Of a DNA stretch of 64,000 bases, positions 36,070 to 40,413 are shown piece after piece. The stretch comes from Candidatus Wolframiiraptor sinensis. GTDB taxonomy: Archaea; Thermoproteota; Nitrososphaeria_A; Caldarchaeales; Wolframiiraptoraceae. The position numbers and the translations under genes are program-made. Numbering within the stretch: position 1 is the stretch's first letter; each line of letters begins with the position of its first letter. The DNA lies in NCBI GenBank assembly GCA_023261815.1, contig JALNKA010000002.1, forward strand, positions 145,736 to 209,735. Reading direction: 5' to 3'. The notes beneath the pieces are model-generated. The model made no database searches. It was not told where the DNA came from and was given only the letters and a program-made list of their open reading frames with translations.

Positions 36070-37365
36070 TCATGGATATACCCTGGCGGGAGTTCTCGGG
36101 AAGAGGCATGCATCCCTTATATGTGATAGCTTTAGCATCCACCATAGCATTCGCTCGATTCCGAGCCCGAATCCGCTGTGCGGCACCGATCCATATTTTC
36201 TCAGGTCGAGATACCACTTGTAGTCCTCCGGGTTCAGCCCCGCCTCCCTAATCCTCTCGAGAAGCTGGTGATAATCGTGTATCCTCTGGCCTCCGCCTAC
36301 GACCTCGCCATATCCGCCCGGGGCCAGGAGATCAGCATTTCTGCAAACTCTCGGGTCGGATGGATCCGGCATGTGGTAGAATGCCTTCGCCTCCCTAGCC
36401 CAATGAGTCACGAAGAATGGCTTCTCGAATTCCCTTGATAGCTCCCGCTCTTCATCGGCCCCGAAGTCGTCGCCCCATTTAACGTCGAACCCCTTTCTCC
36501 GGAGAATCTCGAGCGCCTCGGCGTATGTTATCCTCGGGTATGGCGGCTTAGCGATCTCAGGATCTATCTTCAAGCCCAGCATCTCGAGCTCTTTCTCAGC
36601 CTGCTCGCAGACCCCTCTCACCATAGCGTAGAACAGGTTCTCGATTATCTCTAGGAGGTCTTCTAGCTCCGCGTATGCTATCTCCGCCTCGAGATGCCAG
36701 AACTCCGTTAAATGCCTTCTAGTCCTGCTGAGCTCGGCTCTGAAGCTGGGTTGAATGCTGTAAACCTTCTCGAGGCTGTAAATCGCCGCCTCTTGGTAGA
36801 ACTGCGAGCTCTGCGTCAGGTATGCTTCTCTGCCGAAATAATCTAGCTTGAAGAGCGTTGCGCCGCCCTCGACCGCTGCTGTTATGAAGCTGGGGCAATT
36901 TATCTCGATGAAGCCGTTCTCCCAGAACCACCGCCTAGCCGCTCTTAGAAGCGCCGCTCTGATCTTCATTATCGCAGCGACCCTCGGGCTCCTGATGTGC
37001 AGGTGCCTGTTATCTAGGAGGAATTTCAGCTTGATGCCCTTCCTTATCGGGAAATCGTCAAGGCTCTCGCCGACGACCTCGATCGATCTGCATCTTATCT
37101 CGACTCCACCGGGCGCTCTTGGATCGCACTTCACAATCCCGGAGATCTTCACAGCGGTTTCTCGGCGGAGTTTAACAGCGCGCTCGAAGGAGTCCTCCGG
37201 CATATCACCCCTCCTGATCGCGACCTGAATTATCCCAGTGCTATCTCTCAGATCTAGGAAGAGGAGGCCGCCGTGAGAGCGCTTGCTCCTCACCCAGCCG
37301 AGAAGCGTTACCTCGCTTCCATCGGGAAGCTCCTTCGCATCCTCGACGTAGATCTTCTTCAACAT
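36070..37365 (-). CDS. asnS: Asparagine--tRNA ligase
   Basis: OB-fold N-terminus, VEGGATLF, YLTQSSQFY.E, FRAE.SRTRRHLTEFWHLEAE and PHSGFGLGIER motifs. Confidence 0.92.
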   Translation of the reverse strand: MLKKIYVEDAKELPDGSEVTLLGWVRSKRSHGGLLFLDLRDSTGIIQVAIRRGDMPEDSFERAVKLRRETAVKISGIVKCDPRAPGGVEIRCRSIEVVGESLDDFPIRKGIKLKFLLDNRHLHIRSPRVAAIMKIRAALLRAARRWFWENGFIEINCPSFITAAVEGGATLFKLDYFGREAYLTQSSQFYQEAAIYSLEKVYSIQPSFRAELSRTRRHLTEFWHLEAEIAYAELEDLLEIIENLFYAMVRGVCEQAEKELEMLGLKIDPEIAKPPYPRITYAEALEILRRKGFDVKWGDDFGADEERELSREFEKPFFVTHWAREAKAFYHMPDPSDPRVCRNADLLAPGGYGEVVGGGQRIHDYHQLLERIREAGLNPEDYKWYLDLRKYGSVPHSGFGLGIERMLWWMLKLSHIRDACLFPRTPARVYP

Positions 37366-37774: not shown

Positions 37775-37916
37775 GCCGCTATCACGCAGCCCAATATTCT
37801 CAGCGTATGCTTAAAAACTGTTCTCCGAGAAACTTTCAGCAAAAATGATGCATAAGATTATCCGAAACTCTTTTATATGAGTAAGACCTATTTAAAACCG
37901 ATGGGTGAAGACCTAA

Positions 37917-38090
37917 ATGGCGCGGAAGAGGGTAGCTAAAAAGGCTTCAGCTAAAAAGGGTGGTAGAGGGAGGGGCGGCAGAAAGAAGGCCGCCAAGAAG
38001 GCTGCTAAGAAGAGGGCTAAAAAAGCGCCTAGAAAGAGGGTTAAGAAGGCTGCTGCACCAGCGCCTCAAGAGGCTATAGAGCAGATTTAA
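37917..38090 (+). CDS. 57-aa Lys/Ala/Arg-rich, histone-H1-like basic protein
   Basis: MARKRVAKKASAKKGGRGRGGRKKAAKKAAKKRAKKAPRKRVKKAAAPAPQEAIEQI; TTTTATA box at about 37871 and GGGTGA SD at about 37903. Confidence 0.8.
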   Translation: MARKRVAKKASAKKGGRGRGGRKKAAKKAAKKRAKKAPRKRVKKAAAPAPQEAIEQI

Positions 38091-38128
38091 GCCGCCCCGG
38101 ATCCCCCATTTTTATGCGCGAAATCGCA

Positions 38129-38671
38129 TTAGTATAGGGCGTATCTATCCTCTAATTCCTTTTCCTTGATCGGCCGCTCTTTAATCGTCTCGAGCATTTG
38201 GCCGGTTAAAGCGGAGAGTACCGCGGGTGCTATCAGGATGAAGGTGAGGTCTATTGGTCTCGAGATTAGGTCTCCGGCGAGCCTGCTCACCGCCATGAGC
38301 CAGGCATGCTGATCCTGCCATGCTGGCGCCGAGAAGAATAGGGAGCCTATCCAGAGCATGAGTATCGTGGCGGAGGTTAGAAATGTCGCCTTCGCGGCGG
38401 CTTCAGGGCTCATGAGCAGGATGCCCACCACGCATCCTATGACCAGCCATAGCGTGAGCGGTACTGCGCCCAGCGGGGGATATCCTCCAATCATTGGCTG
38501 ACCAAAGGCCGAAGATATAGGGGCTAATAGGGGCGTATAGGCTCTTAGGAGTATTACGAATATGTCGAGCTGGCCCGAGGAGCGTGCTACGGGCTCATTT
38601 ACGCTCAGGAATAGGCCGGCGAGGGTTATTAGACCGAATCCCAGTCCATAGCCTATGAGCGCTCTAGTCAT
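38129..38671 (-). CDS. Hypothetical membrane protein (about 4 TM)
   Basis: Several hydrophobic segments and a charged C-tail. Confidence 0.65.
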   Translation of the reverse strand: MTRALIGYGLGFGLITLAGLFLSVNEPVARSSGQLDIFVILLRAYTPLLAPISSAFGQPMIGGYPPLGAVPLTLWLVIGCVVGILLMSPEAAAKATFLTSATILMLWIGSLFFSAPAWQDQHAWLMAVSRLAGDLISRPIDLTFILIAPAVLSALTGQMLETIKERPIKEKELEDRYALY

Positions 38672-38784
38672 CTTCCAAGCCGTGAATAGTTCATGCGTTC
38701 AAAAAAGTTTCTCGTCTCATGGGTTTTTAATCCCTATCAGGCGATTACCAAGATAGTTATCCGCGGATTACCGTGATAAGGATC

Positions 38785-40413
38785 TCAGCCGCGCCTAAGC
38801 CTCCAGATCATGAGCTCTCTGGGCAGCCTCTTTCGCTCGAACTGCTGCTCATATAGCTCCCTGATCCTCTGGATCGTGTCGGCCTCCTCCGGCGCCTTGT
38901 CAGCTCTTATCCTGGTTATTCTCGCAAATCTGAGGGCATATCCAGACCTGTACTTAGGGCTTCTCTGTATCTCGTTGAAGGCGACCTCGACGACTATTCT
39001 CGGCCTCACGGCAACCGTGTATCCATCATTGCTTATCGCGAGCTCTAGGAGCCTTTTCGTCATCCACTCGAACTCCTCATCCGTTAACCCCTTGAAGGTT
39101 TTTCCCACGACCTCGAATTCCCCGGTCTCGGGATTGTAGGCGGCGAGGTGGTAGTTGCTGAGCCAGCCGGATCTTCTTCCATGGCCCCAGTCAGCGGCCA
39201 CGATTACGAGGTCCAGCGTGTCGGCGGGCTTAATCTTGAACCAGAGCCGCTCGCGCCTGCCAGGCCTATAAGGCGACTCTAAGCTCTTCGCCATGATCCC
39301 TTCATGCCCTTCCTGCACGGCCCTCCTCATGAAAGATTGAACCTCCTCGAGTCTCGAGGATATTATCCTCGGTGCAAGGTGCTCTTCAGGTATCAGCTTC
39401 TCAAGTAGCTCGCGCCTCTCCCGGTAGGGCATGTCGAGCAGCTCCTGACCATCTAGGTAGAGTATGTCGAAGATCCAGAGCTTGAGCGGGATCCTCTCAG
39501 CCTCCTCCTCGACACCCTTAAGCCTCCTAAATCTTCTCAGTAGCTCTTGGAAGGGCATGGGCCTGCCGGCTTCATCAACCGCCACCACCTCGCCGTCGAG
39601 AACAATCTCGCTGAATCTCGATGAGAACTCCTTGACCACTTGCACGATATCCGGGAGGCTCCTAGTAACGTCGCTAAGCCTCCTCGAAAAGATCCTGACC
39701 TCGTTATCCTTTACGTGGATCTGAACGCGGGCTCCATCAAACTTATACTCGAAGCCCATTGGCTTATCGGACTCCTTTAAGAGCTGCTCCAAGTCATGGC
39801 ACATTTCGGCGAGCATTGGTCTCACGGGCCGAAAGACCTGAAGCCTCGTTGACCTGATCGCATCGCCCCCACCCCTCACCGCGAGCTCCACGAGATCCCC
39901 GATCCTCCCCACGAGCATGAATGCCCTCTGAACATCTTCTAGCGATGCTCCCGTCAGCTCGGCCACGGCCTCCAGCACGAGCCCCTCATTCACGCCATGC
40001 TGCATCTCGCCCATTAGTTGCTTGAGAAACCAGTGCTTCTCGAGAGCGCTCATCCTGGCGATTAGCCCTCGCAGAATCATCAGCTTTCTCTCCCTAGAGC
40101 CAGCCCCCCTGAGACTCGAGATCTCGCGCAGTCCATTCCATACCTCGAGTATTGTCAGCGGCTCTGCTGCTAGCAGAGTTGTCTGCCCAAGCTCTTCGAG
40201 GAGCTGATAGACCGCCGCGGCCCCGATGTCGAGCTTATCCTCATCGCCCTCCGGCATAACCCGCCCTATGAGTAGCAAGATCGCCGGCGCAACTTCATTG
40301 GGCTTAAGCTCCTGGAGAAGCCTAACTATCTGCGCGACCTTATCCTTTCTTCCGCTCAGAGCTTTAATCGACTCGCATGCTCTCGCGAGCCTAAGATATG
40401 GTGTGCTGGACAT
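38785..40413 (-). CDS. lig: ATP-dependent DNA ligase
   Basis: PMLA, EYKFDGARVQIH, LDGEVV, FDILY, EGIMAK, WFKIK and LRFARITRIR.DK motifs. Confidence 0.96.
   Translation of the reverse strand: MSSTPYLRLARACESIKALSGRKDKVAQIVRLLQELKPNEVAPAILLLIGRVMPEGDEDKLDIGAAAVYQLLEELGQTTLLAAEPLTILEVWNGLREISSLRGAGSRERKLMILRGLIARMSALEKHWFLKQLMGEMQHGVNEGLVLEAVAELTGASLEDVQRAFMLVGRIGDLVELAVRGGGDAIRSTRLQVFRPVRPMLAEMCHDLEQLLKESDKPMGFEYKFDGARVQIHVKDNEVRIFSRRLSDVTRSLPDIVQVVKEFSSRFSEIVLDGEVVAVDEAGRPMPFQELLRRFRRLKGVEEEAERIPLKLWIFDILYLDGQELLDMPYRERRELLEKLIPEEHLAPRIISSRLEEVQSFMRRAVQEGHEGIMAKSLESPYRPGRRERLWFKIKPADTLDLVIVAADWGHGRRSGWLSNYHLAAYNPETGEFEVVGKTFKGLTDEEFEWMTKRLLELAISNDGYTVAVRPRIVVEVAFNEIQRSPKYRSGYALRFARITRIRADKAPEEADTIQRIRELYEQQFERKRLPRELMIWRLRRG

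Follow-up and report, generated by a model that had tools for sequence, protein, structure and literature searches.

The window analysed here is a 64,000-nt stretch of the genome of the archaeon Candidatus Wolframiiraptor sinensis (order Caldarchaeales). It contains a small gene for an extremely basic 57-aa protein, set between a gene for a tRNA-binding protein and a gene for a membrane protein (Table 1). Since the first of these neighbours is divergent from the small gene and the second convergent with it, the small gene is monocistronic.

The divergent neighbour, which occurs in 35 of 35 genomes of the family, encodes a stand-alone OB protein (hereafter Trbp). This protein scored below the cut-offs of the NCBIfam models metG_C_term, CsaA and tRNA-binding (for metG_C_term, 111 bits against 116.65), and so is not clearly equivalent to CsaA or to Trbp. 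The membrane protein matched nothing in Pfam or NCBIfam. Its gene is the neighbour of the small gene at every locus that has one, in both families and the additional genus described below; in genus g9 the membrane gene is located elsewhere, at 29% identity. Beyond it lies what we take, from its translation, to be an ATP-dependent DNA ligase. Contigs from RNA-library run X1 have loose ends within this gene, at 39073-39102 (99 and 255 unmatched letters), probably from strain variation or rearrangement in a related population.

Table 1. Features of the small-gene locus, in window coordinates
Feature	Position	Strand	Remarks
AsnRS gene	36070..37365	-	Directly downstream of the Trbp-like gene; named after the label in the sequence-only reading
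Stand-alone Trbp111/CsaA-like tRNA-binding OB protein, 109 aa	37445..37774	-	PF01588, E 1.8e-24; divergent from small gene
Archaeal promoter: BRE-like TCCGAAA, then TATA box TTTTATAT	37861..37878	+	Read from the sequence
Shine-Dalgarno-like GGGTGA	37903..37908	+	8 nt 5′ of ATG
Small CDS, 57 aa	37917..38090	+	ATG start, TAA stop (included)
Basic Lys/Arg/Ala tract, residues 1-44 (MARKR... to ...KRVKK)	37917..38048	+	Includes 12-nt KKAA-type repeats
Ala/Pro hinge and acidic-hydrophobic C-terminal tail AAAPAPQEAIEQI, residues 45-57	38049..38087	+	
T5 tract, probable archaeal terminator	38109..38113	+	19 nt past stop
Multi-pass membrane protein, 180 aa	38129..38671	-	Convergent with small gene
ATP-dependent DNA ligase-like gene	38785..40413	-	Named from its translation

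Composition and rank in the genome

The protein has 16 Lys, 8 Arg, 15 Ala, 5 Gly, 3 Pro and 2 Glu, with neither Asp nor any aromatic residue; lysine makes up 28% of it, alanine 26% and proline 5%. The fraction of charged residues is 0.46. A reading of this DNA made earlier from the letters alone (the sequence-only reading) had proposed the ORF, and our recount reproduces its figures of 16 Lys, 8 Arg and 15 Ala and a net charge of +22 in 57 residues. The segment KKGGRGRGGRKK that it singled out is present in the ORF, and the repeated AKK (KKAA) units that it reported are 12-nt tandem repeats, at 37983-38048 in the window's copy.

The genome is 1.18 Mb long and contains 12,630 ORFs of at least 24 aa. 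When its Lys-dominated ORFs are ranked by basicity, the 57-aa ORF comes first. Four of the 12,630, this one included, are no longer than 150 aa and combine K+R of at least 35% with K no lower than R; one of the other three is presumably ribosomal protein eL39. By this composition ranking the 57-aa ORF has no paralogue in the genome.

Transcription and translation signals

Promoter. The motif (T)CCGAAAnTnTTTTAT(A) stands about 40-50 nt 5′ of the ATG in the aligned orthologues of the Wolframiiraptoraceae (family f1) and of a second Caldarchaeales family (f4). It was not seen, as CCGAAA/TTTTATA, upstream of the 24-aa ORFs of two genomes of a further genus, g14.

Ribosome binding. Shine-Dalgarno sequences pair with the 3′ end of 16S rRNA. 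Here the orthologues of the genus and of family f1 share GGTGA at an unchanged spacing, and those of family f4 have GAGG instead, 7-9 nt before the ATG in all cases. The TATA box and Shine-Dalgarno sequence that the sequence-only reading had assigned to the ORF are thus both conserved, the BRE/TATA in f1 and f4 and the GGTGA across f1.

Terminator. A T-run follows less than 40 nt past the stop in 14 of the 14 genus orthologues. A scan of the region for bacterial-type promoters and for terminators or hairpins gave no match; absence of bacterial-type hairpins is expected in an archaeon, to which scans of this kind are not applicable.

RNA. One 730-nt contig from a metatranscriptomic library (related strain, unstranded) spans 37972-38697, taking in the 3′ two-thirds of the small ORF and the convergent membrane gene. 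Within the ORF two of its changes turn K into R, two more are synonymous, and one GCT is inserted in frame, all as expected of coding sequence. The RNA-library data have zero depth in the bin 37812-37962. From the raw-read metatranscriptomes X3, X4 and X5, of which 3-5% of each run was sampled, we obtained 0, 0 and 14 reads, none of them on the ORF. Overall the RNA data lend weak support to expression of the small gene.

Conservation across the Caldarchaeales

A protein search of 41 related genomes returned in-frame matches within the genus Wolframiiraptor (g1). Loci were then collected through the neighbouring Trbp gene; this yielded none for five genomes of g3 and one of g8, which are left out here. 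In family f1 the small ORF is present in 30 of 30 loci from five genera (14 of Wolframiiraptor, 3 of g4, 3 of g2, 8 of g5 and 2 of g3), and in family f4 in 8 of 8 loci from four genera (g8, g11, g12 and g13). The sequence-only reading had suggested looking for synteny beside the asnS/tRNA-binding gene in relatives, and at these loci of f1 and f4 the ORF is conserved. In family f2, both g14 loci have it in a 24-aa form lacking the acidic tail, and it was found in none of the three loci of g6 and none of the three of g9. None of the four loci of family f3, where synteny is broken, has it.

Wherever it occurs, the small polybasic ORF fills one slot, head-to-head with the Trbp111/CsaA-like gene and tail-to-tail with the 180-aa membrane gene, and both its position and its reading frame are conserved in at least 10 genera. 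By AsnRS, the host's relatives at 81-90% identity are Candidatus Wolframiiraptor allenii, W. gerlachensis and Wolframiiraptor sp., with Benthortus and Geocrenenecus further off; the small ORF is present at the loci of Wolframiiraptor (W. gerlachensis included), Benthortus and Geocrenenecus.

The orthologues range from 24 to 102 aa, always differing by whole codons, and those tabulated have a net charge of +9 to +42, a pI of 10-12, no aromatic residue and no Asp. The g14 ORFs of 24 aa (L065:1950-2024 and L066:1953-2027) are oligolysine/serine sequences between Trbp and the membrane gene; they may represent the gene in a minimal or ancestral state, or else after decay.

When a profile built from 21 orthologues was run on 401 genomes sampled from the phylum, it matched 17, all of them f1 or f4; since it misses known orthologues (among them G003, G011 and all of g3), this count is no guide to absence elsewhere. 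A pattern scan of genome contigs gave 63 matches, none of which was confirmed by tblastn, probably owing to its low-complexity filter. One pattern match, in G018, was rejected as a chance occurrence in another frame of a 145-aa ORF.

Repeat turnover and a selected tail

The orthologues begin with the pattern M-[AP]-[RK]-K-K, followed by a tract rich in Lys, Arg and Ala, and in many species also in Thr. Its length changes through in-frame gain and loss of tandem repeats. In genome G004 the tract consists of an 18-nt unit for RKKKTT, repeated in 7.9 copies (L037:1976-2117). Thr-rich KKKTTR repeats dominate many orthologues and are lacking from the window's copy; their Thr residues could be phosphorylation sites, or a mere product of slippage.

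The basic tract is followed by a hinge, (K/R)AKPK...PAP in the orthologues, and then by a short acidic tail. This tail, which the sequence-only reading did not mention, is the most constrained part of the protein. In Wolframiiraptor it reads PAPQEA[IV]E[QSG]I, and none of P48, E52, A53, E55 and I57 varies among the 14 orthologues of the genus. In these 14 the final ten codons have a mean pairwise identity of 0.912 at codon positions 1+2, against 0.376 at position 3; over the 30 nt past the stop it is 0.353. The contrast between codon positions within the last ten codons indicates purifying selection on the protein rather than conservation of the DNA, and within Wolframiiraptor this selection on the C-terminal tail is strong.

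The tails of other genera read PAPEEKVEAV, PAPAEEEVSPTI, AEEVTGA and EAPAEGA. Across genera only PAP and acidic residues persist, and the tail motif proper is conserved within genera only, which weakens the case for one conserved docking site.

The tail also bears on a replisome role, in which the protein would be a basic peptide tethered to PCNA by QEAIEQI as a degenerate C-terminal PIP box. A PIP box is Q-x-x-[LIM]-x-x-[FYW]-[FYW]. The genus C-terminus does fit Q-x-x-I-x-x-I, and the DNA ligase-like gene is two genes off, but both aromatic residues of the motif are missing, and the tails outside the genus (EEKVEAV, EEEVSPTI, EEVTGA) have lost the Q and the spacing. We rejected the protein as a PIP-box ligand on these grounds, and consider a PCNA-tethered peptide very improbable.

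The same codon contrast speaks against a non-functional origin, either as a chance ORF in A/G-rich low-complexity DNA or as a DNA or RNA element conserved for other reasons. Low-complexity repeats do open long antisense frames as well, none of 10 orthologues appears in a collection of 15 billion proteins, and the RNA data cover the ORF with one unstranded contig and with none of the raw reads sampled. Against this, frame, start and stop are held across the two families f1 and f4 despite near-total turnover of the sequence, promoter and Shine-Dalgarno sequence are conserved, and a search of the region against Rfam gave nothing at E ≤ 1. We strongly disfavour a non-functional origin, giving it hardly any weight; the 57-aa ORF is a genuine gene, more than chance.

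AlphaFold, run with the genus alignment, predicts one helix, from residue 2 to residue 36, with a helical turn further on at 51-54. The model has a mean pLDDT of 66 (block means of 63-76 over residues 1-40) and a pTM of 0.27, values that argue against a globular fold; by this model the protein is apparently intrinsically disordered when free. The description of the protein as a stand-alone K/A-rich polycation therefore stands, as a conserved single-gene unit that is apparently unfolded.

Database and family searches

No family of Pfam or NCBIfam matches the 57-aa protein at E ≤ 1. The orthologue profile A2 gave no match among PDB chains at E ≤ 1, and none among 1.84 billion representative proteins at E ≤ 0.001. 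A word-indexed homologue search, confined to near lengths, proposed 241 candidates, none of which reached E ≤ 0.1. Exact look-up in the 15-billion-protein collection, with 0 of 10 orthologue sequences present, agrees with the ORF having been called unannotated, and implies that gene callers miss this protein family. The ESM Atlas does contain the window's sequence; the best scores were 0.88, all to unnamed clusters, which are leads only. A cluster bearing HC2 scored 0.80, a chance level, and HC2 is found on 20% of its members.

Linker histones. The sequence-only reading had called the protein H1-like. At 57 aa it is too short for the globular winged-helix domain of H1/H5 (PF00538), and AlphaFold gives it a helix and a tail. 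Lacking that domain and any Pfam match, it falls outside the H1 family. Its Lys/Ala/Pro-rich disordered basic tract does resemble an H1/H5 tail, in composition and not by homology. The Pfam profiles HC1 and HC2, for the bacterial proteins Hc1 and Hc2, do not match it either, so that likeness to H1 by homology fails at E ≤ 1 for linker histones and Hc1/Hc2 alike.

Core histone tails. The GRG.GG segment had been likened to the tails of H4 and H2A. This likeness does not extend past the window's copy: GRGRGG occurs in one of 14 genus orthologues, and the remaining 13 have GRKRGG, ARKRAG or KKTT repeats in its place. We therefore give the stretch no weight.

Ribosomal proteins. A match to a ribosomal or small RNA-binding family had been named in advance as a result that would undo the H1-like reading. 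None was found in Pfam or NCBIfam at E ≤ 1, nor was any ribosomal family among PDB chains. This result also bears on whether the protein is a ribosome-associated small basic protein or a general RNA chaperone, either a lineage-specific peptide added to the ribosome or a factor that stabilises RNA when temperatures are high. A small, extremely basic product of a single-gene unit with a strong promoter would suit such a role; just one other small Lys-rich ORF stands out in the genome, and it presumably encodes eL39; and the window's copy has an RGG-like stretch, a motif of the RNA-binding type. Beside the want of a ribosomal family match, however, a length of 24-102 aa that varies by repeat turnover is unlike the fillers of fixed ribosomal sites, and the RGG stretch is found in 1 of 14 genus orthologues. 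We judge a ribosomal or RNA-chaperone role to be distinctly unlikely.

Gene order and the tRNA-binding neighbour

The constant position of the gene suggests another role, as a trans-acting tRNA- or RNA-binding accessory of the Trbp111-like OB protein and AsnRS. The small protein would then correspond, as a separate polypeptide, to the lysine-rich middle domain that adjoins the Trbp-type OB fold in yeast Arc1p and in AIMP1, its basic tract gripping the body of the tRNA while the OB fold grips the 3′ end. In yeast Arc1p the lysine-rich middle domain, a basic and non-specific RNA-binding segment beside a Trbp111-type OB fold, is reported to be required for tRNA binding (PMC11286949), which makes a tRNA-directed role a serious rival. 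In the present system a basic protein and such an OB fold are the products of adjacent genes. Arc1p, however, is one polypeptide, whereas here the genes are separate and divergent, unfused in all loci read, and the likeness is one of gene adjacency alone.

At every locus having it the small gene is head-to-head with Trbp, Trbp and AsnRS are next to each other in f1 and f4, and the selected C-terminal peptide could serve as a docking element. On the other side, adjacency inside one order may be plain inheritance. In genus g6 the membrane gene and Trbp remain a pair, separated by 113 nt in which there is no small ORF, the g14 small ORF adjoins Trbp without AsnRS, and no rearranged locus retains the small gene with Trbp only. 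A predicted complex of the Trbp dimer with the small protein scored under the mark, and weighs neither for nor against binding. A role as Trbp accessory seems to us improbable, if not negligibly so.

Chromatin context

Archaeal histones are mostly tailless and have no known linker-histone-like partner. The host genome encodes one histone (L074:1462-1701, minus strand, contig C33), of 79 aa and essentially tailless, with few residues beyond the fold. It also has three Alba genes. Histone matches were obtained in 75 of 76 genomes of the class, and Cren7 matches in none of the 76, the host genome among them. Some g2, g3 and g8 genomes have a second, weak histone-fold match, at 20-21 bits.

The possibility that the small gene replaces Cren7 or the histone was considered and dropped: with Cren7 in 0/76 genomes, histone in 75/76 and the small gene patchy, there is no pattern of replacement. 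The g6, g9 and f3 genomes that lack the small gene at the Trbp locus carry the same histone, and so the small gene is not an obligatory histone partner.

Comparison with known systems

Polycations built from repeats and resembling H1 are already known in eukaryotes and bacteria. The C-terminal domain of H1 binds DNA electrostatically and without regard to sequence, with induced helix formation. Like the protein studied here, the H1/H5 C-terminal domain is rich in Lys, Ala and Pro, highly charged and unfolded when free. The 57-aa protein differs in having no winged-helix domain, no sequence homology and a selected acidic tail, and in being archaeal and confined to one order.

The bacterial counterparts include Hc1 and Hc2 of Chlamydia and two proteins described as H1-like and nucleoid- or polyphosphate-associated, AlgP of Pseudomonas and DdbA of Streptomyces (PMC9239181, PMC3643593). 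With Hc1/Hc2, AlgP and the DdbA N-domain the 57-aa protein shares the character of a prokaryotic, repeat-built, Lys/Ala-rich polycation; it is much shorter, has another repeat unit and an acidic tail, and gives no HC1 or HC2 match.

Among archaeal proteins, Hocher et al. 2022 (PMC7613761) describe a 74-aa lysine-rich candidate nucleoid-associated protein (NAP) of the WP_019177984.1 type, from a single-gene operon of Methanomassiliicoccales. It resembles the present protein in being small, basic, lysine-rich, lineage-specific and the product of a single-gene archaeal unit; by comparison of descriptions only, the 57-aa protein differs in its low complexity and its pI of 12. The same paper uses four criteria for NAPs, small size (<290 aa), a single-gene operon, high abundance and DNA binding, and the 57-aa gene agrees with the first two of the four. 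Among the literature titles and abstract openings consulted, no stand-alone archaeal repeat-built H1-like polycation is described.

Proposed function

Of the explanations considered we favour, at somewhat less than an even chance, a lineage-specific polycationic binder of nucleic acids with a role at the DNA or nucleoid, analogous to the H1 C-terminal domain or to protamines. The Lys/Arg/Ala(Thr) tract would bind the phosphate backbones of nucleic acids independently of sequence, neutralising their charge, and would probably turn helical on binding, as in the H1 C-terminal domain, protamines and the bacterial H1-like proteins. Its most likely target would be chromosomal DNA, which it might coat, bridge or compact, given that the chromatin of this thermophile comprises one tailless histone and Alba. 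The Pro-Ala hinge and the tail PAPQEA[IV]ExI-COOH may fold back on the basic tract, tuning its affinity; alternatively the hinge and acidic-hydrophobic tail may dock on a partner protein.

These data do not discriminate between a role at chromatin, at tRNA or at the ribosome. RNA- and tRNA-directed roles fit them equally well, and nothing separates DNA from RNA, tRNA, the ribosome or polyphosphate as the putative target. The rest of the probability, beyond the readings given here, belongs to polyphosphate, the membrane or some other target.

A more specific form of the chromatin role is conceivable, in which the protein is the linker-histone analogue of the Caldarchaeales, an 'H1 tail in trans' coating linker or hypernucleosome DNA in chromatin built on a tailless histone. 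Its selected C-terminal peptide (PAPQEAIExI) would dock on the histone, Alba or another chromatin protein, and gain or loss of repeats in the basic tract would tune compaction between species. We hold this form to be unlikely, with a modest share of the probability.

Significance

The small gene offers a clean case of a low-complexity microprotein that retains its composition, architecture and C-terminal motif while repeat slippage turns its sequence over. It is also a warning that oligolysine mini-genes are systematically unannotated. Should the protein be merely a generic RNA-binding polycation, the value of the finding would be modest and mainly at the level of annotation. Should the 'H1 tail in trans' hold true, it would be the first archaeal linker-histone-like component, and would exemplify the birth of a chromatin protein from an intergenic oligolysine mini-ORF, 24 aa long in one genus and reaching 102 aa in another.

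W. gerlachensis, a carrier of the small gene, is culturable (PMC9246946). At this locus an order of thermophiles that have histones has conserved, under selection, a polycation that stands alone. It is overlooked by gene callers and protein databases, and is a directly testable candidate for a new archaeal component of chromatin or of RNA handling.
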